Origin: an uncultured virus (IMG/VR IMGVR_UViG_3300046782_000572)
Taxonomy: Duplodnaviria > Heunggongvirae > Uroviricota > Caudoviricetes
Direction: 5' to 3' (one strand)
Virus record (IMG/VR): IMGVR_UViG_3300046782_000572
Length of the DNA: 64,000 nucleotides
The position numbers were made by a program, and so were the translations under genes. How positions within the stretch are numbered: the stretch's first letter is position 1; the number at the start of each line of letters is the position of its first letter. This document shows, one piece after another, positions 3,186-63,652 of this stretch. The notes below the pieces were generated by a model. The model had not been told where the DNA came from. It ran no database searches and saw nothing but the letters and a program-made list of their open reading frames with translations.

Positions 3186-3367
3186 AAAAGGCGCTCCGAC
3201 TGCGCCTGCTTCTCGTAGTCGTCCGCGATCTCGACCAGGATATCGATCTGCCGCTTGGCGTCACCCGCCTCGATCTTGCCGATCTCGATCCAGTGCGGGT
3301 ACAGCCGCCGGCGCAGCTTCAGCTCGCGCTCGATCTCCCTGAGCTTATCCTCGGCTGCGATCACCAC
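3182..3367 (-). CDS. Small hypothetical phage protein
   Basis: Overlaps both neighbours in the operon; EIERELKLRRRLYP. Confidence 0.65.
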   Translation of the reverse strand: MVIAAEDKLREIERELKLRRRLYPHWIEIGKIEAGDAKRQIDILVEIADDYEKQAQSERLL

Positions 3368-3546
3368 GACTTGACCTTCTCGATGGCGGCGCGTGCAATC
3401 TCGCGGGCTTCGTATTTGGTCATTGCAGTAAGCGTTTTGCCGGGTGCTGGGTTTGCGCCGCGAAAGCCCTCGACAATAGCCTCCAAAGCCTCAAGCAGAT
3501 CGGGTCCGGCTCTCCTGATGCGCTCAAGCTCCTCTAGGGTTTTCAT
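3361..3546 (-). CDS. Small hypothetical protein, homologue of 58718-58906
   Basis: Near-identical MKTLEELERIR.AGPDLLEALEAIVEGFRGA. Confidence 0.75.
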   Translation of the reverse strand: MKTLEELERIRRAGPDLLEALEAIVEGFRGANPAPGKTLTAMTKYEAREIARAAIEKVKSW

Positions 3547-3562
3547 GACATTTCAAATCCCC

Positions 3563-3653
3563 AAAATATCCCTGCCTTGCCTCGCCATGCCACGCCCGGC
3601 CACACCCAGCCTGGCCGTGCCGGGCCGTACCGCGCCTCGCCTCGCCGGGCCAT
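3563..3653 (-). ncRNA. (GGY-NN)16 pentamer tract, putative gapped-code guide RNA
   Basis: 16 in-phase RCC-NN units on + (3574-3653, two use ACC), tail GGCAGGGATATTTT on -; NN string matches 58928-58969. Confidence 0.8.
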
Positions 3654-3658
3654 ATCCA

Positions 3659-4189
3659 TCAAATGTTCATATGAAACCGCATCGAGCAGATCCACTGATG
3701 CACCGTCGCGTCCTCCGGCATTCCGTCCGCGGCGGCATCGAGATAGGGCTGCAGCTTGCGGACGATGTTCAAGACCGTGCTGTGATCGAAGCCGCCGAGA
3801 CGGCGGCCGATCTCCACTGTGCTGCGCGTCGTCAATTTGCAGCATAGCGACATCGCGATTCCGCGGGGGTAGACGACCTCGAGATTGCGCCGGCGGGCAA
3901 ATAGCTCGGTCTTGGAGCAGCCGAACGACAGGCACGTTTCCCGCACGATCTCATCGACCATTGACGTCGGCGCATGAGGCGCGGTCGGTGGGCGGATTCG
4001 CTCAGGCAGTGCGGCGGGCGACGATGGCGAAGCGGGTCGCGCAAGGTGCTGCAAGAGCGCTGCGGGCGGCCGCGGCCGCGGCGGCGCAGGCATAAGCTGC
4101 CGCCAAAATGCCGAGTGGATCGACCGGTACCTCGCCAGCATTTCGTCCGCGCTCGAATAATCCGGCACTTGTGCGGGTGCGACCTTCAT
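3659..4189 (-). CDS. DnaA C-terminal (Bac_DnaA_C-like) HTH protein
   Basis: RR..EVVYPRGIAMSLC..T.RS.VEIGRRLGGFDHSTVL; start set at MKVAPAQ. Confidence 0.8.
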   Translation of the reverse strand: MKVAPAQVPDYSSADEMLARYRSIHSAFWRQLMPAPPRPRPPAALLQHLARPASPSSPAALPERIRPPTAPHAPTSMVDEIVRETCLSFGCSKTELFARRRNLEVVYPRGIAMSLCCKLTTRSTVEIGRRLGGFDHSTVLNIVRKLQPYLDAAADGMPEDATVHQWICSMRFHMNI

Positions 4190-4191
4190 TG

Positions 4192-4392
4192 CTACGCCTT
4201 CCGCTCTACATCGCTTTCGATTTCTTCCATGCGGACTATCAGGTGGTCTAACGCAGTATCCCGATCCTCGTGATGGGTCAGAAACCACAGCAGAATGGCG
4301 GCGAGCATGCCCTCTCGACTATCGTCGTCGAGGGGCGTGAGGATGCCCCGCATGATGTTGAGGTCGCGATGGACCTCAGTTTCGGTTTTCAT
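4192..4392 (-). CDS. Hypothetical protein, homologue of 59398-59601
   Basis: Shared VHRDL..MR.IL.P..DD.REGMLA. Confidence 0.75.
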   Translation of the reverse strand: MKTETEVHRDLNIMRGILTPLDDDSREGMLAAILLWFLTHHEDRDTALDHLIVRMEEIESDVERKA

Positions 4393-4411: not shown

Positions 4412-4576
4412 GACAAAGGTATCCCTGCCCTGCCTTGCCCCGCCACGCCTGGCCCCGCCACGCCTCGCCCTGCCGCGCCCCGCCGCGCCGCGCCACAACC
4501 CAAATCCACAAAAGTATCCCTGCCATGCCTCGCCATGCCTCGCCGTGCCATGCCGCGCCGGGCCACGCCGCGCCAA
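4412..4576 (-). ncRNA. Two (GGC-NN) tracts (11 and 14 units), putative guide array
   Basis: Units 4522-4576 and 4427-4496, each followed on - by GGCAGGGATAC(T/C)TTT. Confidence 0.75.
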
Positions 4577-4589
4577 AATCCTGCGTCCG

Positions 4590-4805
4590 TCATGACGCGC
4601 CTCGCTTTCCTTCGGCGATCATCAAGGCGTCGCGCACCCGCATGCCCAGGCGGCCGGGGCTGACGCGGATGATCCGGGCACTGTGCGCTCTTTGCAAAGT
4701 TCTCACGCTGACGCCGGCCAGCTCGGCGGCCTGGCGGATATTGATAATTTTCAACAGTTCGATCTCCGTAGGGAGTGGCGAGTCTTCAAGGCGCTTTCTG
4801 CTCAT
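4590..4805 (-). CDS. Excisionase-like HTH protein
   Basis: INIRQAAELAGVSVRTLQR HTH pattern. Confidence 0.65.
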   Translation of the reverse strand: MSRKRLEDSPLPTEIELLKIINIRQAAELAGVSVRTLQRAHSARIIRVSPGRLGMRVRDALMIAEGKRGAS

Positions 4806-5010
4806 TCTTCGGACCTCCTTCTCGCTCGGTGATCCATTCATTTGCCGCCGCCATTGAGATCACCGCCCGACTGCCTAATTTCATTTCGCGCGGGCCGAGT
4901 CCCTGTCTGCGTAGTTTGTAGTAAAACGGCACTGAGATGCGGAACGCCTGGCAAAATTCCGGGACACTCATAGCTAAAACCGGCGTGTGGTGAGATTTCT
5001 TGCTCAGCAT
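4786..5010 (-). CDS. AlpA/excisionase-like HTH protein
   Basis: AMSVPEFCQAFRISVPFYYKLRRQGLGP. Confidence 0.7.
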   Translation of the reverse strand: MLSKKSHHTPVLAMSVPEFCQAFRISVPFYYKLRRQGLGPREMKLGSRAVISMAAANEWITEREGGPKNEQKAP

Positions 5011-5023
5011 TACCCGCCCCTTA

Positions 5024-5196
5024 AATCATCCAAGTATCCCTGCCTCGCCTTGCCTTGCCAGGCCAGGCCAAGCCGCGCCCCGCCATGCCGCGCCTCGCCT
5101 CGCCGCATCGGGAAATCGCCAAAGTATCCATGCCTCGCCCTGCCATGCCCCGCCGCGCCGCGCCACGCCAAGCCTGGCCTGGCCCCGCCTCGCCGC
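5024..5196 (-). ncRNA. Two (GGC-NN)13 tracts, putative guide array
   Basis: Units 5132-5196 and 5042-5106 with GGATACTT tails; starts 2 nt after the ParB-like gene stop. Confidence 0.75.
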
Positions 5197-5198
5197 AC

Positions 5199-5861
5199 TC
5201 AAGCCGCACTCGATTTCGCCTGAGCCTTTACATTCGCCCAAAGCGAAATCAGCCTTTCCATCTCATGTGTGAAACCGTCGGATCGCGGCCACATATCGGT
5301 CTCGATCAGCACGCAAAGCTGACGCAGATGAAACGTCGCCTTGCCGCCGCTGTATCTGCGATTGAGCGCTTGTTGTTCTGTGTTGAGCGTTTCGCCGTGT
5401 AGGTGGCTCAGGCCGCCTTTGAGTGCGATCGGATGGCCGTCTGGCGCGTTGGCAAAGCCGCGCTCGATCTTCTCAATCCTTTCGAGAGGCAGACGAACCA
5501 CCTCGGCAATCTGCTCGCGCGTATAGCCATACTGCTCCAATCGAAGCACCGAATGACGGATCGTATATTGATCAAGCGGCGTGCCGTGGCCGATATTTAA
5601 CCTAACAGCGTCGGCGAACATGTCGGCGTCGCTGGCATACTTTTTCTCGATGACATCGACCTTTGTTATGCCCTTGCGCCGGTAAACTTCCAAACGGTGG
5701 CGCCCATCGACGAGACGGTGCGTCTTTACTTCCACAACGAGTGGAGGAAACTTGGCGCCAGCCTCGCCGGCAAGCGCAAGCCGCTGAATGTTGAATTCGG
5801 ATACGCCATTTCTTGGATACATAGTCTCGTCGAATACTATTTCGCCGATCGCTAGTTTCAT
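5199..5861 (-). CDS. ParB/Srx N-terminal domain protein
   Basis: FPPLVV....RLVDGRHRLEVYR and N..HG.PL motifs; AAGGAGG RBS before MKLAIG; the longer ORF-track start is translated repeat. Confidence 0.8.
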   Translation of the reverse strand: MKLAIGEIVFDETMYPRNGVSEFNIQRLALAGEAGAKFPPLVVEVKTHRLVDGRHRLEVYRRKGITKVDVIEKKYASDADMFADAVRLNIGHGTPLDQYTIRHSVLRLEQYGYTREQIAEVVRLPLERIEKIERGFANAPDGHPIALKGGLSHLHGETLNTEQQALNRRYSGGKATFHLRQLCVLIETDMWPRSDGFTHEMERLISLWANVKAQAKSSAA

Positions 5862-5876
5862 CGGTTCCTCCTTAGT

Positions 5877-6153
5877 CAAAACCCTGCCCTGCCCCGCCTT
5901 GCCTCGCCCGGCCAGGCCCCGCCACGCCACGCCAGGCCAAGCCGCGCCCTGCCTCGCCCAGCCGCGCCCAGCCCCATTGGAAATTGCCAAAACAGCCCTG
6001 CCATGCCTCGCCCCGCCCCGCCACGCCTTGCCGCGCCGCGCCGGGCCTCGCCGCGCCGTAACTGCAATCGACAAAGTATCCCTGCCTTGCCTCGCCCGGC
6101 CAGGCCCCGCCATGCCTCGCCTGGCCGCGCCTCGCCAGGCCGTGCCACGCCGC
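5877..6153 (-). ncRNA. Three (GGC-NN) tracts (14, 13, 18 units), putative guide array
   Basis: Units 6084-6153, 5995-6059, 5886-5975 separated by AT-richer linkers. Confidence 0.75.
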
Positions 6154-6156
6154 ATC

Positions 6157-6798
6157 TCAATCCTCGACTGTGAACGATCTCACCGCGAAGCGGCCAAACG
6201 GCCCGTTTTTTTGTGGCCGATAATCGCCGACGCCCATGCGGTTGCCGGCGTCGCCCATGATTTCGGCGATGATCTCCGGGGTTTTGATCAGCACCGGATC
6301 AAATTCAACTCGAAAGGTCGCGGACCACTCATCGAAACGCGGTCGGCGTCGAATGATGCCCTGGCGCTGTACAATCGCGCGTCTGCTGTCGATCACATAA
6401 TCCTTGATCGGCGAGCCATCGCGACGCTGTAGAGGGATCAATTCTTCGGCCACCACAACGTGGGCCAGGTGGCTCTTCATGGTCGAACGCTTGGCCTTCC
6501 AGGCACTGGCGGCGCCAAGCAGCGAGGCGCGAAAGGCTTCGCCCTTGATTGCGCAGGTGCCATCCGGAAGGCGATAGACGCCGTTCTCGGCTTCTACTTC
6601 GGCCTCGGGGATTCTCGTGCCGCGCTTGGCGCTCGTATCGCCGCCCATGGATTCCGGGTTATGAGTGAGCAGCGGTTTGATGCCATCGATGGTGATCTGA
6701 ATTGTGCGGATCGTTGGCGTCGCTGGCCCAAGTGCGGGTTCTGACGCCGCCGGTATGGAAACTTTCGCTTTTGGTTTCGTCGTCGTTTTATCCAACAT
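6157..6798 (-). CDS. Stand-alone RAMP/Cas7-like protein (Vipr-like), putative RNA-guided effector
   Basis: GIKPLLTH, GEAFRASLLGAA, RRRPRFDEW, G-rich loop AGNRMGVGDYRPQKNGPFGRF; GGAGAG RBS; flanked by pentamer tracts. Confidence 0.75.
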   Translation of the reverse strand: MLDKTTTKPKAKVSIPAASEPALGPATPTIRTIQITIDGIKPLLTHNPESMGGDTSAKRGTRIPEAEVEAENGVYRLPDGTCAIKGEAFRASLLGAASAWKAKRSTMKSHLAHVVVAEELIPLQRRDGSPIKDYVIDSRRAIVQRQGIIRRRPRFDEWSATFRVEFDPVLIKTPEIIAEIMGDAGNRMGVGDYRPQKNGPFGRFAVRSFTVED

Positions 6799-6815
6799 GC
6801 TGTGCTCTCCCTTGT

Positions 6816-6988
6816 TTAAGACCCTGCCTTGCCTTGCCCTGCCCTGCCTCGCCACGCCTCGCCTGGCCTCGCCATGCCTTGCCTCGCCGTGCCCCGCCGC
6901 GCCGCAACTCATGCAATCCACAAAAGTATCCCTGCCTCGCCACGCCGGGCCACGCCTTGCCATGCCGCGCCGTGCCAGGCCCCGCCGT
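6816..6988 (-). ncRNA. Two (GGC-NN) tracts (11 and 16 units), putative guide array
   Basis: Units 6934-6988 and 6826-6905 between recT and the RAMP-like gene. Confidence 0.75.
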
Positions 6989-7001
6989 AATCAAAATCCA
7001 C

Positions 7002-8180
7002 CTAATTCATCTCATCAAACGCGGCTTTAACTTCCGCTGACAACGCAGCAGTATCATCGGCCGTCATTCCTGCGGCATTACGCAGGCTCCGCGCGTTCGG
7101 CCCGGACCACCATGCGAGCATATCGCCACTGGCTTTTCCGCCGGACCGTTTTGCGGCCTCGATGATCTGGCGCGTCAACATCCGAAAAACCTCGGGGTCT
7201 TTCGGCGGCTGTTTCTGCGCCATGCCGATCAGGGCGCCGACGGTCAACTCGGGATCGGCCCGCGACGCCTCGCCGGTGTCGGCGTCGTGCTCGATCACGG
7301 TGTCGTCGCCCGGCTGCGGGTCGCCCGGGTCGTCTGCGCTCGGCGGCGGCGGATCGCCTTCGCTATCGCTAGTGCTGCTGCCGGCCCACTTCTCAAGCGC
7401 CGCCATCGCGCTGGCGGGCTGGCGCTTCGTCACCTGCTTGCCGCGCTCGGCCGCGCCTTTGAGATCATACAATTCATCATCCCGTCTAACCACGTCATCG
7501 AGGTCGGTTGACATCGGCAATGACTTGCAGTGCAAGCGCACCACGGTTTTGCGGCACATTTCCGGGTAAGCGATCGGATCACTCCATGGGCCTCTCTTCG
7601 ATTTCGAATAGCGCTTGCGGATGTCCTCGATCTCCTCGATTGACATAATTTCGTAAGCCTTGGTGCCGTCCTTGAAGACGGCAATCGAATAGGCCGCGAT
7701 GATCTTGCGCCCGCGCCCACCACGCAACGACGGCCGGTGGTGAATGTGCGGATCGTCGCCGAGTTGATATTCGAAGGCGTCGCCCTCGTGCACGACATGT
7801 GCATACAGATCGGATAGCTCTCCGCTGTTGCGCGCCTTCTTGCGGATGCCGGCAACCATTGGCATCCAAGCGGCCTGATCGCCGCTCTTGCGGCCGTCCT
7901 CGTTTTCGGAAAACGGAACGATAGCGCCTTCTCTGCCGTCCGGCAGCAGGCCGTCAGCGGCGGCTTTCATCGCTGCATTGAAAAGCGATTGCCTCGTACA
8001 CTTAAAAAGCGACGGCGAATTTTGGAGTGCCGTCATGATACATCTATTAAACCGCTCTAACGGAATATGCGCCGGCAGCGCATACGCGAATTGCGGTCCC
8101 ATCTTTTCCAGATCGCGCCGAAACTGTTCGATAACGGCCTTCGGACCTTGCGGAGCGGTGGTGACTTGTTGTGTGTTCAT
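7002..8180 (-). CDS. recT: RecT-family single-strand annealing protein
   Basis: LPAHIPLERF, AADGLLPDGREGAIVPF, GPW..YPEMCRKTVVR..CKSLPMS. Confidence 0.92.
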   Translation of the reverse strand: MNTQQVTTAPQGPKAVIEQFRRDLEKMGPQFAYALPAHIPLERFNRCIMTALQNSPSLFKCTRQSLFNAAMKAAADGLLPDGREGAIVPFSENEDGRKSGDQAAWMPMVAGIRKKARNSGELSDLYAHVVHEGDAFEYQLGDDPHIHHRPSLRGGRGRKIIAAYSIAVFKDGTKAYEIMSIEEIEDIRKRYSKSKRGPWSDPIAYPEMCRKTVVRLHCKSLPMSTDLDDVVRRDDELYDLKGAAERGKQVTKRQPASAMAALEKWAGSSTSDSEGDPPPPSADDPGDPQPGDDTVIEHDADTGEASRADPELTVGALIGMAQKQPPKDPEVFRMLTRQIIEAAKRSGGKASGDMLAWWSGPNARSLRNAAGMTADDTAALSAEVKAAFDEMN

Positions 8181-8202
8181 CGTTTACTCTCCGAGCGTTT
8201 TT

Positions 8203-8262
8203 AAAAAACCCTGCCCTGCCCTGCCTTGCCTCGCCTTGCCTTGCCAGGCCAGGCCACGCCAT
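8203..8262 (-). ncRNA. (GGC-NN)10 tract
   Basis: Units 8213-8262 with tail GGCAGGGTTTTTT, upstream of recT. Confidence 0.65.
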
Positions 8263-9910: not shown

Positions 9911-10291
9911 ATGACCGCAGCGGCAAGTGGCGGCAACGATATCGCCGCGAAAGCGGAAGCCTACATCAGGCAGATCGAGGAAATCGACGAGGACCTGGAT
10001 TCCGAAAAGGGCGAGTACATGAGCAGGTGCCGGTTCCTGCGTGATAAGCGCAAGCACGTGTTCGGCGCCGCCAAGGACGACGGCATCCAGGTCAAGCCGC
10101 TCAAAGCGGTGGTGAAGCGGCGCAAGTACGAACGCAAGATCGAATCGCTGCCGAGCGAGTTCGACATCGATGAAAGCGCGCAATATGAAGCTCTTGCCGC
10201 GGCCTTCGCCGGAACCCCGTTTGGCGATTTCGCCGGCGAGCGAGCGAACGGCCCGCGCAGCGACGACGCGGTAGATCAGCTCGGCATCTAA
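9911..10291 (+). CDS. GapR/DUF2312-like DNA-binding protein
   Basis: AYIRQIEEIDED...KHVFGAAKDDGIQVKPLKAVVKRRK. Confidence 0.6.
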   Translation: MTAAASGGNDIAAKAEAYIRQIEEIDEDLDSEKGEYMSRCRFLRDKRKHVFGAAKDDGIQVKPLKAVVKRRKYERKIESLPSEFDIDESAQYEALAAAFAGTPFGDFAGERANGPRSDDAVDQLGI

Positions 10292-10339
10292 ACAAAAACA
10301 TCGAACGACCCCGCAGGCGCAGGCGGGGGAGGCTGCGCG

Positions 10340-10858: not shown

Positions 10859-11811
10859 CGAAGCGAGCGATCGCAAAGCGTAAGTCGTCCCAACTGGAAT
10901 TGTATGATCCAGAGAAGGGGCTTGCGTCGATTGCTGTCGCTGAGATCGGCGAGAAACATTTCAAGCGCGCAAAGGACCCGAGCAAACTGTTCAAGGCGAT
11001 CGAGGCAAAGATCACGGCGCAGGCCGAATACGTCGTGTGGCGCGACGGCGTGGCAGCGCAACAGGTCGAGCCCAAAAGAAAAGGCAAAGGGGGTAAGATT
11101 TCAGCACTGAAATCGTACCTCCCCACCGCCGACCCTGGCGACGTGGTCGCGCACCGCTGGCGCAAGCGCTTCTGCACCAAGACCAAGAAGGGCACCGCAT
11201 TCGACCGAGCGAAGGTGGCGCTGGCCCTGAAGGATGCGCAGGCGCGATGTCAACGCATCTGCGAGCAAGTAAAGGACGGCACCGTGCGGGGCACGGAAGG
11301 CACCGGCGAATTCGAGTTATACACGCCGGCCGAATACATTGAGGCAGCACGTCTTGTGCTCGCAGCTATCGATCTCGACCCGGCCAGCAATGACATCGCG
11401 CAGAAGACCGTGAGGGCCGAGCACTACTTCACCTCTGAAACCAACGGACTAGAGCGCGAATGGAATGGTCGCGTGTGGCTCAATCCGCCCTATCACCGCG
11501 ATCTGTTGCCGGACTTCGTCGACAAGATGATCGAGGAAGTGACAGCCGGTCGCGTGACGGCCGCAATTATGCTCACCAACAATTGCACCGACACGGAATG
11601 GTTTCACAAGGCGCAGGCATCGTGCGCTGCAATCTGTTTCACCAAGGGCCGCATCAGGTTCACCCAACCAAACGGAATTGAGGTGCTGCCGACACAAGGT
11701 CAAGCGTTCTTTTATTTTGGGCCGGATGTTGCCGGGTTCGCGTCGGTGTTTTGCAAAATCGGTTTTGGCGTCGTGCCGTCGTGGTCCTTCGACGATGGGG
11801 GCGATGCATGA
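10855..11811 (+). CDS. Phage DNA N6-adenine methyltransferase (Dam-like)
   Basis: YTP, IDLDPAS, VWLNPPY, TDTEWF, GRIRF. Confidence 0.88.
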   Translation: MTKRAIAKRKSSQLELYDPEKGLASIAVAEIGEKHFKRAKDPSKLFKAIEAKITAQAEYVVWRDGVAAQQVEPKRKGKGGKISALKSYLPTADPGDVVAHRWRKRFCTKTKKGTAFDRAKVALALKDAQARCQRICEQVKDGTVRGTEGTGEFELYTPAEYIEAARLVLAAIDLDPASNDIAQKTVRAEHYFTSETNGLEREWNGRVWLNPPYHRDLLPDFVDKMIEEVTAGRVTAAIMLTNNCTDTEWFHKAQASCAAICFTKGRIRFTQPNGIEVLPTQGQAFFYFGPDVAGFASVFCKIGFGVVPSWSFDDGGDA

Positions 11812-17625: not shown

Positions 17626-18389
17626 AGCGGCTGGATTATGCGATCATCGTGCCGTCGAGGCGCCGCGCCCATAACATGGGGACAATCAAGCTGCTGTTGC
17701 CGACGGCGACGATCTGCATCGACGAGCGCGAGGCCGACGACTACATGGCCGTCGTGCCGAAGGCGCGCCTGCTCCTGCATCCGCCGTTGGAGGGCCTGCC
17801 GGCGGTGATGAATTGGATCCAGGACAACGTCAATCAACAGATCCTGGTGGAGATCGACGACGACTTTGCGGGCGTGCAGGTCACGACGGGCTCGCGGCGC
17901 TTCATCACCGACAGCGAGGAAATCCTGGCGATCGTCGAGAACGGCGCGCAGGCATGCAGCGACCTCGGGCTGACCACGTTCTGCTGGTCGAGGACGCCCA
18001 ACACGACAGTCATCCACCCCGACATGCGGCCGGTCGTGCCCACGCAGGCGGTGTGCACGGCGTTCGGCGTGATGGGCGCGGCGAGACACCGCAAATACGA
18101 TACCCGCTTCACCGGCCGGGCCGACATCGATTGGGCGCTGACGACCCTTCTCAAGGACCGCTGCCTGCTGGCGGACGTCAGATATTATTTCGACACCGGG
18201 GACGCGTTCGCAGGCCGCGGCGGAAACGTCGGCGTGGTGACGGCCGAGCAGTTCACGGCGGCATCGCGCGGGCTCGTCGAGAAGTGGGGCAACGCGCTTT
18301 CGATGAAGCCGCCCGGGTATGCGCGCAAGCGACAGGTGGCGCCGCTGCGGATCGTGGCGACGCGGACAAACAAGGTGGCGCAGCGATGA
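17622..18389 (+). CDS. GT-A fold glycosyltransferase (TET-associated/GREB1-like type)
   Basis: IIVPSRRR, R-equivalent MNWI, EIDDD, ADIDW, GRGGN motifs. Confidence 0.65.
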   Translation: MKRLDYAIIVPSRRRAHNMGTIKLLLPTATICIDEREADDYMAVVPKARLLLHPPLEGLPAVMNWIQDNVNQQILVEIDDDFAGVQVTTGSRRFITDSEEILAIVENGAQACSDLGLTTFCWSRTPNTTVIHPDMRPVVPTQAVCTAFGVMGAARHRKYDTRFTGRADIDWALTTLLKDRCLLADVRYYFDTGDAFAGRGGNVGVVTAEQFTAASRGLVEKWGNALSMKPPGYARKRQVAPLRIVATRTNKVAQR

Positions 18390-19501
18390 AGGTGCTGATA
18401 ACGGGCGGCGACGGTTTCATCGGGTGGCCGACAGCTCTGCGGCTGTCAACGCGCGGCGACGACGTGCTGGTGCTGGACAACTTCATGCGGCGGCGGCTCG
18501 CCAAGTCGCTGACGCCGATCAAGCTGCTGTCGGTGCGCTTGAAGCGCTGGTGGGAGCTGACCGGAAAACCCATCCAACACTGGACCATGAACGTCTGCGA
18601 CGACTTTCGTCAGCTCGACGAGGTGGTCAGGTGGTTTCAGCCGGATGCGATCATCCATCTGGCGGTGCAGCCGTCCGCGCCGTACTCGATGCGCGACGCC
18701 GGCACAAGGATGGAAACGGTTCGCAACAACGTCATGGCGACGACCGCGGTGCTGACTGCGGCGATCAGCGCAAAGGTCAGGCCGCACATCGTCCATATCG
18801 GAACGATGGGCGTCTACGGTTATGACGCGGCGGGCGTGATCCCCGAGGGCTACATCGACATGATGGACAAGCGGGTGCTGCATCCGACGAATCCCGGTTC
18901 GCTCTATCACGCCACGAAGGTGATGGATCAGACGCTGTTCGCCTTCCATGCGAAAACCGCCGGCCTCAGAATAACCGATCTGCACCAGGGCATCGTGTGG
19001 GGCACGCAGACCGACGAGACGCGGATGGACGACGCGCTGATCAATCGCTTCGACTACGACGGCGACTTCGGCACCGTCGTCAATCGCTTCCTGATGCAAG
19101 CGGCGGTCGGGCATCCGCTGACGGTGTACGGGACCGGCGGCCAGACCCGCGCCTTCATCAACATCAACGACACCGTGCGTTGCTTGGAGCTGGCGCTCGA
19201 CAGCCCGCCAAATCCAGGCGAGCCCGTGCGGATCATGAACCAGATGACAGAGGTTCGCCGCGTCCGCGATCTGGCAAACATGGTGGCGCGGCAGACCGGG
19301 GCCGCGATCGCGCGCCTCGACCAGGAGGCGGCCGAGAACGACCTCGCGGTGGACAACAGCTCGCTTCGCCAGCTCGGCTTGGCAGCGCCAACCCTGTTGG
19401 CGGACGGGCTGCTGACGGAAACCATTGACATCGCCAGCCGCTTCGCCGGGCGCGCCGACGTGGGCAGGGTCGCCAGCACGGCGAATTGGAGGGCGGCGTG
19501 A
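18386..19501 (+). CDS. sqdB: UDP-sulfoquinovose synthase homologue
   Basis: GGDGFIGWPTAL, APYSM, GTMGVYGY, NPGSLYHATK, RITDLHQGIVWGT, NRFDYDGDFGTV, GTGGQTRAFI. Confidence 0.88.
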   Translation: MKVLITGGDGFIGWPTALRLSTRGDDVLVLDNFMRRRLAKSLTPIKLLSVRLKRWWELTGKPIQHWTMNVCDDFRQLDEVVRWFQPDAIIHLAVQPSAPYSMRDAGTRMETVRNNVMATTAVLTAAISAKVRPHIVHIGTMGVYGYDAAGVIPEGYIDMMDKRVLHPTNPGSLYHATKVMDQTLFAFHAKTAGLRITDLHQGIVWGTQTDETRMDDALINRFDYDGDFGTVVNRFLMQAAVGHPLTVYGTGGQTRAFININDTVRCLELALDSPPNPGEPVRIMNQMTEVRRVRDLANMVARQTGAAIARLDQEAAENDLAVDNSSLRQLGLAAPTLLADGLLTETIDIASRFAGRADVGRVASTANWRAA

Positions 19502-58317: not shown

Positions 58318-58721
58318 AGCGGGTGCTCCGTCTGCGTCTTTCCGTTCGCCTTGCCCCGCAGTCGCGCGAGCCGCGACGCGGAAATCCGGCTCACTGCCTT
58401 GAGTCGAGCGCGCAACTTAGCGTTCGTCTCAGTCAAATATTTTGCCTCCCGGCTCGCCCAAGTACCCCAAAGGAACTCCCGCAGACTTTCATGCTCTGTG
58501 CGGACAGCGTTTTCCCATTGACCGCAATAATGGCCGGTTGTGACCTCCAACCACGCCGGGTGAAAGGTACAGGTTGCAGCGATATGCCGTTCGGTCTCTC
58601 TGATGAGTCTTCTGGCATCGTAGCGATCGTATTCCTCACCTTCGAACGTTGGTTTCCAGTCCGCCGGTATCTTGAACCTGACGTGCTTGCAGGTCAGACA
58701 GGCTTTGCGTTGTTCAGTCAC
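58314..58721 (-). CDS. Hypothetical Cys-containing protein
   Basis: CLTCKH, CTFHP, HYCGQW; GTGA overlaps. Confidence 0.6.
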   Translation of the reverse strand: MTEQRKACLTCKHVRFKIPADWKPTFEGEEYDRYDARRLIRETERHIAATCTFHPAWLEVTTGHYCGQWENAVRTEHESLREFLWGTWASREAKYLTETNAKLRARLKAVSRISASRLARLRGKANGKTQTEHPL

Positions 58722-58906
58722 AGCTTGCCGATCTTCTCGATGGCGGCGCGCGCAATCTCGCGGGCTTCGTATTTGGTCATTGGCGTCCACGTATGACCAA
58801 ACGGGTCTGGATGCGCACCGCGAAAGCCCTCGACGATGGCCTCCAATGCCTCAAGCAGATCGGGTCCGGCCTTTCTGATGCGCTCAAGCTCTTCTAGGGT
58901 TTTCAT
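58718..58906 (-). CDS. Hypothetical protein (homologue of 3361-3546)
   Basis: Direct sequence similarity. Confidence 0.75.
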   Translation of the reverse strand: MKTLEELERIRKAGPDLLEALEAIVEGFRGAHPDPFGHTWTPMTKYEAREIARAAIEKIGKL

Positions 58907-59401
58907 TCAAATCCCCATGTGCTCGCGCATCACGCGGACCCATTGGGCCGGCGTTGCTTCGTCCGGCATGCCGACTTTCGTCGCGTCGAGAGCCGCCGCC
59001 ATCTTGCGTATCCCGTGCAGGACCGTGGTGTGGTCCCGGCCAAAGCGCCGGCCGATTTCCGGCAAGGTGCGCAACGTCAAATACTTGCACAGCGAAAACG
59101 CGATTTGGCGCGGGGCCACGACATCTTTAGTGCGGCGCACCGATAGCAGCTTGGCTCTTTTCACTTCGAATTCAGTGCAGACCGCCCGCACAATCTCCTC
59201 GACACGCACCGGCAGCAGCGGCGGCTCGATCGGCTCGACAGGCGGCGGCTCAGGCTCGACGCGGCGCTTGACAGGCGGCGGCGGCGGAGTCGTTCCGACC
59301 TCGGAGCGGTGGGCAAAGAAATGGTTTCGGATCGTGGCGTAGCTCGCAATCATCTCTGCCGCGCTGTGGTAGTTCGACACGTGGGCAGGGGTGCATCTCA
59401 T
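58907..59401 (-). CDS. DnaA C-terminal-like HTH protein (homologue of 3659-4189); contains the apparent guide target
   Basis: [39 protein letters not shown]. Confidence 0.82.
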
Positions 59402-60746: not shown

Positions 60747-60807
60747 TTTTTCCCTCCTGTTTGAGTTTTCGACGGTCCAGGCGCATTTGCGCGCCCGCCG
60801 CCTTCTC

Positions 60808-62107
60808 GCCTTGCCTGGACCCGCCTCAACTCGACTTGCCTCGACCCGACAAGCCGGGCCACGCCGGCCTCACCAGACCACGCCGCCCGCGCAGTGCCAC
60901 GCCGTGCCACGCCCCGCATTGCTGTGCCGAGCAACGCCGGCCACGCCATGCCTTGCAGTCCAAGCACTGCCTCGTCGCGCCTTGCCCGGCCGCGCCGGCC
61001 GTGCCCCGCCACGCGCGGCCACGCCATCCCAGGCCTCACCGCGCCGTTCCCCGCCAAGCCGCGCCCCGCCGGCCAAGACCGCCCCGCCCGGCCTTGCCGT
61101 GCCGCGCCGCGCCACCCCCGGCCTCGCCGGCCATGCCACGCCGGACCTTGCGTTGCCGCGACCAGCCAAGCACCGTCCCGCCTCGCCGGCCACGTCTTGC
61201 CGGACCTTGCCCAGCCTCGTCTCGCCACGCACAGCCGCCGACATGCCAAGCCCGCCCCGCCTCGCCTCTGCCGGCCCTCCATGACCCCCGGCCTCGCCGG
61301 CCGCGCCAGCCCACGCCCCGCATCGCCCTGCCGGGCCTTGCCCGGCCGCGCCGGCCAAGCCATGCACCGCCTTTGCCCGTCCCGCATCGCCATGCCCCGC
61401 CGCGCCGGCCCCGCACTGCACGGCCTGGACGCGCGAGGACGCCAAGCCGGCCGCGCCAAGCCCGGCCCCAACCGAGCCGCGCCGGCCTCGCACGCTCCGC
61501 CGGGACTGGCCCACCCCGGCCAAGCCTTGCCACGCCGGCCAAGCCCTGCCTGGGCACGCACTGTTCCGCCGCGCTGTGCCAGACCGTGCCAAGCCAAGCC
61601 GAGCCGGCCCAGCCGGTGCACTGCCGGCCTCGCCAGGACGTGACGGGCCATGCCAGGGTCGGCCGTGCCAGGGCATTTCCCGCCGTGCCTTGTCTGCCGC
61701 CGGCCTCGCCGGCCAAGCCAAGCCGAGCACTGGCAGGCACAGCATCGCGTAGCCGCGCCTCGCTCTGCCGCGCCGCGCCGGGCCGGCCACGCCCTGCCAT
61801 GCCAGGACAGGCCAACGCCATGCCATGACCCGCACGGTCACGCCGGCCTCGCGCGCCATGTCCGATCCGGTCTGGCCACGGCTCGCCCTGCCTCGGCTCG
61901 CCTCGCCTCGCCTGCCGAGCCAGCCCATCCCAGGCCCGGCCATGCCGAACCCGGCATCGCCCTGCCGGGCCACGGCTGGCCTCGCCCGGTCACGCCCGGT
62001 CAGACCATGCCTGCCTTGCCACGCCGGCCATGCCTTGCACCGCCCAGCCTGGACTTGCTCTGCAGGGACCTGCCTCGCCTGCATTGCCTCGCTGGCCATG
62101 CTGCCTC
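60808..62107 (-). ncRNA. ~1.3 kb degenerate (GGY-NN)n array, putative multi-guide array
   Basis: Pentamer periodicity with roughly 20 GCCGGCC phase-shift delimiters; overlapping ORFs here are low-complexity artefacts. Confidence 0.72.
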
Positions 62108-62108
62108 T

Positions 62109-62642
62109 TCACACTGCTTTGCCGCTGGGTCTATCGCCCGGCGGTTTGCGCCGACCGCTGCCGGGAGGCGGCGGCCGTTTTCCACGATCCAGACGTTCCC
62201 GAATTGCGAGAACGTCCGAAAGCAAGGCTTCAAATTCCCTGCTAAGATCGAGCATGTGCGCGACCTGCCGCCCGCGATCGATGCCGGCCTCAAGGCGCAC
62301 AAGCTCGTTTTCGATGATCTGGCGAGCATCCGCACGGCGTTGCGCTGCTTGTGTCAGCGCAACGTAGCCACCGCCGACCGGCGAACGGGGATCGTGAACG
62401 TAGTAGATCGCCGTCGCTGGCCGCTCGTCGATTTCGACAACGACACGAACCTCGCGGATAAGTCGTCGCGCGGTGTCGAGACGGTGCTCGTGCGCCGCGC
62501 TGGCGTCATTCCAGTCGAAATCATCGTGCAGAAGGTGCGATGGTTCGCGCGCCGCCTCGACGACGCGCTCAGGACGCACGACGCCGTCCTTGTCGGCCAG
62601 CTTGGTGATGGCGTGCGCCTTGGAAGCTCGCGAGCGCATCAT
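62109..62642 (-). CDS. Conserved phage protein coupled to the RAMP-like gene (putative accessory factor)
   Basis: PERVVEAAREPSHLLHDDFDWNDASAAHEHRLDTARRLIR; ATGA overlap with 62639-63652. Confidence 0.72.
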   Translation of the reverse strand: MMRSRASKAHAITKLADKDGVVRPERVVEAAREPSHLLHDDFDWNDASAAHEHRLDTARRLIREVRVVVEIDERPATAIYYVHDPRSPVGGGYVALTQAAQRRADARQIIENELVRLEAGIDRGRQVAHMLDLSREFEALLSDVLAIRERLDRGKRPPPPGSGRRKPPGDRPSGKAV

Positions 62643-63652
62643 GCGAACTCACCAATGGCTGGTGGGCGGCGGCCGTTTGCCTTCGCCGCCAGGGCCGCGG
62701 TTTTGCGCGGCCGTCCGGGTTTGCGGCGCTCATTGGATTCGGCTGCGGCGACCAGCTCGGGGACCAGGGATCGCGGCTTCTTGCCTTTTCTCGCGTGCCC
62801 ACTCGCAGACGACGGAACCTCCATCTCGCGGCGCCGCGTCTCGGTTTCGAACCACGCCAACAGCTCTTCCGACTCTTCGTCGTAACATATCGGCGACGCC
62901 AGCGCCGCGTCCTGGGGCTTGCGGCCCATGGTGCGCATGACCTCGGCGAACTGCTTGTCGTGCTCGTTGACCAGCATAAATTGACCGTAAGAGCCGGCTC
63001 CCTTCTCAGGGCGCCAATCGCCGACCCCCATGATGATGCCGCCCGCGCCAGCGAGGTTGGCGACATCGCGTTCCTTGATGAGGCTGCTAACGAAGCGCAC
63101 CGGCAGCACTGCGCACCACTTTTCGATGATCGCGCGGGTGCGAATGTTCGGCGTCTTGTTGATGCCGCCTTCGCGCACCACCGACATGAACAGCTTCGGC
63201 ACGCCATAGATCGGGATATCAACTTCGGGGATGCTGGTGAGCTGGCCCACCGCGGTCTTGGTGGCGCCCGGGATGCGCAGCGCCGCATCGGTGATTGCGC
63301 TCTTGAACGCGCCGGCCGGCATATGCAGGCGCGCCGCGCGGCTGTCGTCGCGAGTGCGATAGACCGACGCCTGAAACTCGGCGACCGGATCATGCTTCAA
63401 CGTCGATTGTTTTTCGGCGTCGTTCTTCTTGCGGTCCGGGAAAAGCAGTTGCTGCCGCGCCTTTTCCGACATGCGGTGCATAATCAGCGGCGTAGTGCCG
63501 AGCAGATAAAACTTAACAAGCCCCATTTTCAATTCCATGATCTCGATACTCTCGGGGAGGGGCTTTTTCCCGGTCGCGAAGGGTTTTCCCGACGACCAAT
63601 CAATTGCATCCGATGTCGATGTCTTCGTTTCAGTCTTTGGCTTGCGTCCCAT
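62639..63652 (-). CDS. Second stand-alone RAMP/Cas7-like (Vipr-like) protein
   Basis: GTTPLIMH, PAGAFKSAITDAA, IRTRAIIEKW, AGGIIMGVGDWRPEKGAGSYGQF: same motif order as 6157-6798. Confidence 0.75.
   Translation of the reverse strand: MGRKPKTETKTSTSDAIDWSSGKPFATGKKPLPESIEIMELKMGLVKFYLLGTTPLIMHRMSEKARQQLLFPDRKKNDAEKQSTLKHDPVAEFQASVYRTRDDSRAARLHMPAGAFKSAITDAALRIPGATKTAVGQLTSIPEVDIPIYGVPKLFMSVVREGGINKTPNIRTRAIIEKWCAVLPVRFVSSLIKERDVANLAGAGGIIMGVGDWRPEKGAGSYGQFMLVNEHDKQFAEVMRTMGRKPQDAALASPICYDEESEELLAWFETETRRREMEVPSSASGHARKGKKPRSLVPELVAAAESNERRKPGRPRKTAALAAKANGRRPPAIGEFA

Follow-up and report, generated by a model that had tools for sequence, protein, structure and literature searches.

Why should a phage keep a guide directed against a gene of its relatives immediately behind its own copy of that gene? 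The question is raised by a 64,000 nucleotide (nt) stretch of an uncultured Caudoviricetes record (IMG/VR IMGVR_UViG_3300046782_000572; the whole stretch is called the window here) that carries two prophages, element 1 and element 2. In element 1 a repetitive tract on the minus strand (3553..3654) lies directly downstream of a gene encoding a DnaA_C-domain protein. It represents no novel type of system but a vrRNA gene of the VIPR kind, and we consider it highly probable, as an explanation of the locus as a whole, that it belongs to the VIPR system of element 1 and is directed against the DnaA_C gene of element 2. The system described in the VIPR preprints (bioRxiv, 2026) centers on a small RAMP protein, Vipr, and on the vrRNAs that it coats, each a run of 9-16 YNNGG repeats ending in a 3' tail; DNA is recognized by pairing of the NN dinucleotides only, one target base, usually the wobble base, being skipped per unit, and the effect is to repress transcription in rival phages, in satellites and in resident prophages (10.64898/2026.04.26.720920). 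Predicted targets are called there at an NN match of 80%, and seven VIPR types are distinguished, the references for type II being Escherichia phage SUSP1 and a Pseudomonas fulva prophage (10.64898/2026.04.26.720920). VIPR structures have been reported as well (10.64898/2026.04.26.720927).

The tract comprises 17 YNNGG units (3654-3570) and a tail (3569-3553) that reaches the ATG (3546) of the gene directly downstream, which encodes a 61 residue protein (3361..3546, minus strand) and is the homolog of a 62-aa gene in element 2. At its other end, the stop codon of the DnaA_C gene (TGA, 3661-3659) is followed by five bases (3658-3654) and then by the first variable dinucleotide (3653-3652). GGY is constant in 16 of 16 GGYNN units. 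The dinucleotides of units 1-14 (3653-3587) form the guide, and those of units 15-17 (GA, AA, AG) are kept, together with the tail, across the vrRNAs of the element 1 family: most of the 11 vrRNAs of element 1, and those of its relatives, end in the units GA AA AG and then a tail of the GGATAC-TTT-G-GATTT type. The first guide dinucleotide, AT, falls within a constant leader of the vrRNAs behind all three DnaA_C alleles of the self family, namely those of element 1 and of two sister-phage loci, L005 and L006, that are close relatives of each other; the truly variable guide therefore has 13 units, which match element 2 at 25/26 positions. The 11-mer TGGGGATTTGA, with which the element 2 DnaA_C gene ends, also forms bases 3563-3553 of the tail; it sits in the homologous leader of the 61/62-aa gene and fits the tail consensus too. 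Rfam gave no match within the window and a tRNA search found none. Contigs from four soil or rhizosphere runs carry the tract stretch unchanged, and one further contig has a junction of the element 2 type. Among 24 runs, no RNA run carrying this DNA was found. Early ideas that the tract might be a G-quadruplex, a RecA/RecT triplet register or a template repeat like that of a diversity-generating retroelement were dropped.

Read by the published rule of one skipped nucleotide per unit, the first 14 dinucleotides of the tract match codon positions 1-2 of 14 in-frame codons in the DnaA_C gene of element 2 (58907..59401, minus strand; 164 aa; Pfam PF08299, E 2.2e-24) at 27 of 28 bases, with the skipped base always at the wobble position (predicted target site 58928..58969, minus strand). 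When the guide was scored at 127,916 positions on both strands of the window, a score of 27 occurred once and a score of 20 once (at the equivalent site in element 1's own gene), all others being 18 or lower, and 300 guides with shuffled unit order reached at best 21/28 (maxima 17 to 21, mean of maxima 18.15). Only a period of three gives the 27/28 match; periods of two and four, corresponding to skip lengths of 0 and 2, give best scores of 18 and 20, and at a skip of 3 the guide finds the tract's own sequence (28/28). Two further IMG/VR loci have the target site as well, L067 (on a contig shared with L062 and L063) and L066 (on a contig shared with L061). L067 differs from element 2 at this site by four wobble bases and by the order of two acidic residues, and keeps the 27/28 match, while L066 scores 26/28 because an arginine codon has moved from the CGN to the AGR family. 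A pattern search allowing three mismatches gave no match in 401 genomes from the order of genome G002, nor in G002 by itself, and alignment searches of IMG/VR with DnaA_C and RecT returned only six loci each, mostly on the same contigs. The coordinates and counts on which the original prediction was built were all reproduced, and its two central claims, that the tract acts as a guide and that this guide is aimed at the co-resident prophage's DnaA_C gene, are supported by the 1-nt-skip code and the in-frame 27/28 match.

Its third claim, that the phage's own allele is spared, is likewise supported. The element 1 DnaA_C gene (3659..4189, minus strand; 176 aa from an ATG at 4189, with an alternative GTG at 4288; PF08299, E 2.8e-18) carries the equivalent of the target site at 3680..3721, minus strand (MPEDATVHQWICSM), where the guide matches 20/28 nt and 9/14 whole dinucleotides. 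This is a 71% match, under the 80% used for predicted targets (10.64898/2026.04.26.720920). Across the alleles of the self family (element 1, L005 and L006) the guide scores 20-21/28, and no self match of any element 1 guide is found at 72% or above. Element 1 would escape its guide because its allele is mismatched at 8 of the 28 guide positions. The further suggestion that this gene end had been specially recoded is not borne out: the two DnaA_C proteins are 41% identical over their whole length and 7/14 identical in the 14-codon segment, so that divergence in the segment does not exceed that of the entire gene, and alleles of this family are also present in sister phages that do not have the guide; no special recoding is called for. 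Element 1 alone has Ile-Cys at 3680-3694 (minus strand), within the guide footprint, the other five alleles of both families having Val-Arg. The change is suggestive, and may be either an escape from the phage's own guide or ordinary divergence; it fits the general 59% identity between the DnaA_C proteins of element 1 and L005.

The remaining parts of a VIPR module lie further upstream in the same early operon. The vipr gene (6157..6798, minus strand; 213 aa; phrog_4652) encodes a protein with a RAMP/Cas7-like fold, Vipr1, that has no Pfam family. Its AlphaFold2 model (pLDDT 84.8, pTM 0.77) gave 110 Foldseek matches to PDB entries at E <= 0.001, the best of which (E about 1e-6, probability 1.00, TM about 0.5) are to chains from type III-A Csm complexes and include a Csm3 structure. 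Nearly all of its 133 homologs are metagenomic; a scan of genome contigs with the single protein gave 48 pattern matches and no relatives, and an alignment-based scan gave two loci. A ParB-like gene (5199..5861, minus strand; 220 aa; phrog_1033, E 7.5e-13; weak helix-turn-helix (HTH) similarity) is a candidate vap, that is, the accessory gene of the module. No nuclease domain was found in its product by Pfam or PDB sequence search. A gene of this kind comes after vipr in 11/11 mapped relatives, with vrRNAs beside the pair in 10/11. Ten further vrRNA genes (4425..8260, minus strand) are placed between early genes in five other intergenic gaps of the operon (8260-8206, 6986-6932, 6903-6819, 6151-6082, 6057-5993, 5973-5879, 5194-5130, 5104-5040, 4574-4520 and 4494-4425), and have no target within the window. 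The resulting order is YqaJ, a 146-aa gene, one tract, RecT (7002..8180, minus strand; Pfam PF03837), two tracts, vipr, three tracts, the 220-aa ParB-like gene, two tracts, two small HTH genes, two tracts, a 66-aa gene, DnaA_C, the tract considered here, two 61-aa genes and a 124-aa gene, with the integrase beyond. As terminase, portal, sheath, baseplate and amidase are all encoded, element 1 is a complete prophage of the myovirus type. Between its early and structural regions lies an NAD-dependent epimerase/dehydratase-type gene (17813-19501, plus strand; PF01370, E 2.8e-24) that is possibly cargo.

Element 2 begins at about 56.6 kb with an integrase of its own and carries homologs of the 61-aa gene, DnaA_C, the 66-aa gene, RecT and YqaJ. 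Here the stop codon of the DnaA_C gene (58909-58907) directly meets the ATG (58906) of the 62-aa gene (58718..58906, minus strand) with no tract between them, which is the 'empty site' of the original prediction. Element 2 also has a Vipr-like gene (62639..63652, minus strand; 337 aa; phrog_4652), whose product is 27% identical to Vipr1, and a long array (60800..62100, minus strand) made of 1.3 kb of degenerate pentamers; it shifts phase at repeated occurrences of the motif GGCCGGCG and is probably a vrRNA array of the staggered kind. With a distant Vipr and a pentamer array of its own in element 2, both prophages appear to be armed.

How the tract came to lie at this junction can be judged in part from its relatives. 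In L005 and L006 the whole VIPR module (a vrRNA, vipr, further vrRNAs, the ParB-like gene and more vrRNAs) is found between DnaA_C and the 61-aa gene, and the single vrRNA of element 1 shares its 5' junction with the first, and its 3' junction with the last, of the vrRNAs in those modules, indicating that the junction is the VIPR site of this lineage. The gene end and leader that make up the junction are common to element 1, L005 and L006 and absent from element 2, L066 and L067 (two or three lineages per class). As had been anticipated, presence of a tract goes with the upstream allele: a vrRNA lies behind 3/3 alleles of the self family and 0/3 of the target family, in what is a small sample, and not only element 2 but also the two further target-bearing phages lack a tract at the junction. 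The site is a hot spot in other respects too: element 2 has nothing there, L066 has a small open reading frame (ORF) and a duplicated 61-aa gene, and L067 has a deletion that extends into the 62-aa gene. The two 61-aa copies of L066, which has no VIPR, are at 10132-10317 and 11216-11401, and a fragment resembling the end of another DnaA_C gene (WVRVMREHM) is found at 11170-11225, ahead of the second copy, which implies that this junction has been rearranged repeatedly.

L066 is also the closest VIPR-less backbone to element 1. The products of neighboring genes are 77-94% identical between the two (RecT 81%, the 66-aa protein 83%, the first 61-aa protein 94%), as against 48% for DnaA_C. DNA homology ends at window position 4080 and is back at 3549, with one weak match of 107 nt inside the DnaA_C gap (3810-3704, 73%), so that the distal two-thirds of DnaA_C together with the vrRNA form a mosaic block between conserved arms. 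Vipr itself is 96% identical between element 1 and L005/L006, yet they have no guide in common and their modules occupy different places among the early genes. Both the set of guides and the position of the module change much faster than the Vipr protein.

Among the sequences compared, the layout of a guide next to the carrier's own copy of its target gene does recur, in a sample that is small and biased. Of 29 distinct guides from element 1, L005 and L006 scanned against the three rivals (element 2, L066 and L067), two match all three, the shuffled null giving 0.85 chance matches per replicate. A vrRNA of L005 (8934-9003) and L006 (8933-9002) starts inside the last codons of the recombinase gene, and in this null-tested scan its guide matches the C-terminal tails of the rival recombinases at 22/24 in L067, 21/24 in L066 and 20/24 in element 2 (targets at L067 8925, L066 8964 and window 59807 (-)). 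The carrier's own allele, whose site precedes the vrRNA by about 170 nt, scores 16/24, as does the RecT tail allele of element 1, which would likewise be spared. The expectation that guides match the homolog of the gene just upstream was thus realized in 2/2 robust sister-phage guide-rival pairs. A third guide, of nine units and low complexity, reaches 15/18 to element 2 only, which is noise level. The recombinase of L005/L006 has a different N-terminal domain on the same tail of about 100 aa as the RecT of element 1.

The vipr genes provide a second comparison, for which 174 distinct guides were matched to 43 distinct non-own vipr genes at a cut-off of 85%. Guides directly downstream of their own vipr matched a foreign vipr at or above this level in 2/20 cases, against 0/154 for guides elsewhere (Fisher p = 0.013); with guides of up to 11 units the counts are 2/10 and 0/71 (p = 0.014). 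The first vrRNA after vipr in L031 (843-902) matches conserved motifs of other vipr genes at 20/22 in 13 listed loci, and the first after vipr in L035 (2465-2524) matches the 3' end of the L033 vipr at 17/20 and its own vipr at 15/20. Two other candidates were rejected, a guide of L040 that matches the element 1 DnaA_C gene at 19/22 with the skipped base off the wobble position, and a guide of L020 that matches L029 at 17/20 with an in-frame stop at the site. A guide of L053 (1985-2044) matches an unannotated ORF of L037 (6602, minus strand) at 18/20 and has a 16/20 site 572 nt away on the opposite strand of its own contig. At the threshold of these last three matches the shuffled null itself yields 8 matches.

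Several observations weigh against so tidy an account. The vipr comparison was devised after the data had been seen, and the L031 guide matches its own vipr at 18/22, a thin margin below the rivals. The locus set is centered on vipr and includes many contigs of 1-3 kb, which favors nearby targets. In L005 and L006, the vrRNAs that come straight after DnaA_C have no match among the DnaA_C alleles compared, and exact gapped patterns of these two guides gave 0 and 0 matches in IMG/VR. When 177 distinct guides were compared with their own flanks of 1.5 kb on either side, the similarity was 0.620 against 0.610 for shuffled guides (Wilcoxon p = 0.12). No target is known for 10/11 guides of element 1, nor for about 27/29 of those of element 1, L005 and L006 together, which keeps these guides out of any score of placement. 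One guide position of the tract mismatches all three known targets (element 2, L066 and L067). In the array of element 2, searched against the window and all loci, 58 windows of 10 units gave no target at 18/20 or better, and 30 windows of 12 units gave none at 21/24 or better, the parsing of this phase-shifting array being possibly wrong. Lastly, that the own allele is spared is deduced from a threshold which the preprint uses for calling targets, and the allele should be taken as probably immune.

These points lend some weight to the view that adjacency is a mere by-product, the junction being simply where VIPR inserts and proximity the outcome of chance and ascertainment. The whole module occupies the junction in L005 and L006, where the ParB-like gene stands ahead of the slot that precedes the 61-aa gene; vrRNAs are found in six intergenic gaps of the early operon; and the flank-similarity result is not significant in a locus set that is biased. 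What tells against such a by-product is that both guides matching all rivals match the gene upstream of them (by a rough estimate, about 1 in 7 each by gene count and about 0.05 by distance), that the vipr comparison departs from chance, and that published solo vrRNAs targeting vipr are located exactly at the deleted vipr-vap1 (10.64898/2026.10.15.759431). We regard chance placement as unlikely, while the strongest of the competing accounts. Much further down comes autoregulation, by which a partial self match would tune the phage's own DnaA_C and downstream operon, with the element 2 match as incidental homology. Several guides do match nearby genes of their own phage at 71-82%, but the rival alleles score 26-27/28 where all three alleles of the self family score 20-21/28, and 20/28 falls inside the range of shuffled maxima for the window; we think this very improbable.

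Two dynamic accounts had been put forward with the original prediction. One is a homing-like drive, in which VIPR binding, or a nick or cut by the ParB-like protein, stimulates recombination by RecT/YqaJ and so copies the resistant gene end and the guide into the rival. RecT and YqaJ are indeed encoded nearby, the layout recurs, nucleases are predicted in some VIPR types (10.64898/2026.04.26.720920), and the block 4080-3549 lies between conserved arms (86% over 332 nt and 88% over 191 nt in L066; 68% and 84% in element 2). Such blocks are, however, ordinary phage mosaicism, and characterized VIPRs repress transcription and do not cut (10.64898/2026.04.26.720920). The accessory protein has a PHROG ParB-like match and a weak HTH, with no nuclease found; element 2 shares a contig with element 1 and is still unconverted; and sister phages with other guides have the same 'resistant' allele and leader. 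Nor does the tract destroy the recognition site, which is in the upstream gene whereas the tract starts past the stop, and resistance stems from 8 substitutions of a different allelic lineage and not from an insertion. As no evidence of cleavage or conversion was found, homing through RecT/YqaJ has no direct support, and we judge it improbable. The other account, marginally less probable still, is that new guides arise locally from the adjacent upstream gene, the self copy diverging later. Four guides are each the first vrRNA after the gene, with the self-equivalent site about 20-210 nt upstream, and the first six units of the L035 guide match its own vipr at 12/12. Yet the guide of the tract (3653-3587) resembles the rival family; its 20/28 to self is just the identity between elements 1 and 2 at those positions; its lone mismatch to element 2 disagrees with the element 1 base too; and there is no known mechanism that turns NNx codons into NNGGY units. 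Because the self similarity is explained by homology between the two elements, acquisition of this guide from adjacent sequence found no direct support either.

Under the explanation that we prefer, a vrRNA of prophage 1 directed against the DnaA_C gene of prophage 2, the tract would be transcribed with the minus-strand early operon. If the published mechanism applies, one Vipr protomer would bind each YNNGG unit, hiding GGY and presenting NN, and the 13-14 presented dinucleotides would pair with codon positions 1-2 of 14 DnaA_C codons in prophage 2 and in its allelic relatives, with the wobble bases skipped. The vrRNA-Vipr1 complex would thus sit on the template strand at the end of the rival DnaA_C gene and form a roadblock 22-63 nt before the next gene, so that the rival's early operon would be blocked upon joint induction of both prophages or superinfection by a relative. 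Prophage 1 would be spared, its own DnaA_C being of the other allelic lineage. The guide would be where it is because this is the junction at which the phage lineage keeps its VIPR module. Whether adjacency to the resistant allele was also selected is a separate matter, on which we lean, distinctly though not strongly, towards a selected linkage of weapon and antidote. A guide split from its resistant allele by recombination would silence the new genome that receives it, so only tightly linked pairs should persist. We therefore offer tentatively, at a little under an even chance, the proposal that a guide against close relatives is retained no more than about 200 nt behind the carrier's resistant allele, and that the block spreads as a selfish cassette by way of its conserved flanks. 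The distal part of DnaA_C with its vrRNA, and in the sister phage the recombinase tail with its vrRNA, may be examples of such a block. Linkage of this kind might serve to avoid suicidal recombinants and, where the block recombined into a rival backbone, could convert that rival.

Much of this is already known in kind: the system, its code, the targeting of rivals and a lower self-match are in the VIPR preprints. Like the VIPRs of SUSP1 and P. fulva, that of element 1 has a small RAMP protein, YNNGG vrRNAs with hypervariable NN and a conserved 3' tail, a 1-nt-skip code that skips the wobble base and a candidate accessory gene of the DNA-binding type beside vipr, and it is carried by a prophage with targets in resident or rival prophages. 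It differs from them in that Vipr1 has no Pfam family, the accessory gene is ParB-like, the tail has only about 17-23 nt, and the vrRNAs are dispersed among the early genes at distances of up to 2.5 kb from vipr. Guide and target, moreover, are on one contig, the target being in the neighboring prophage, whereas the preprint's own-contig control gave no match at 80% or above. In the SUSP1 family self-match scores are below rival-match scores (10.64898/2026.10.15.759431). The solo vrRNAs of that family are similar to those described here in having guides against relatives' homologs of carrier genes, self matches lower than rival matches, targets near gene ends, and a guide at the locus homologous to its target (where it replaces vipr-vap1). 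Whereas the self target has been lost by deletion there, the phages described here retain it in the form of a diverged early-gene allele (DnaA_C or the recombinase tail).

More distant likenesses are also apparent. The backbone of class 1 CRISPR-Cas systems (Cas7/Csm3) shares the RAMP fold and the periodic breaks in pairing between guide and target; here there is no CRISPR array, cas1/cas2 or spacer, and two nucleotides in five are read against two in three. Homing endonuclease genes, restriction-modification and toxin-antitoxin systems are alike in logic only, in that a weapon is linked to a resistant target and the victim has an 'empty' site. In contrast to homing and poison-antidote elements, the tract leaves the recognition site intact, the site lying 22-63 nt from the junction inside the upstream gene, and unlike for homing elements there is no evidence here of copying into the empty site.

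The tract illustrates the VIPR code in nature with textbook clarity: two armed soil prophages share one contig, and a guide of one matches an early gene of the other at 27/28. What goes beyond the preprints is the layout of the guide beside the carrier's own allele; a positional rule, by which a guide stands just behind a resistant allele, was not found in the searched passages of the VIPR preprints. If that rule is true, VIPR cassettes would be poison-antidote units, and the mosaic replacement of alleles among the early genes of phages would be accounted for. The gene next door to a guide would then serve as a rule for predicting its target, and the question of how phages gain and maintain their guides would become testable.

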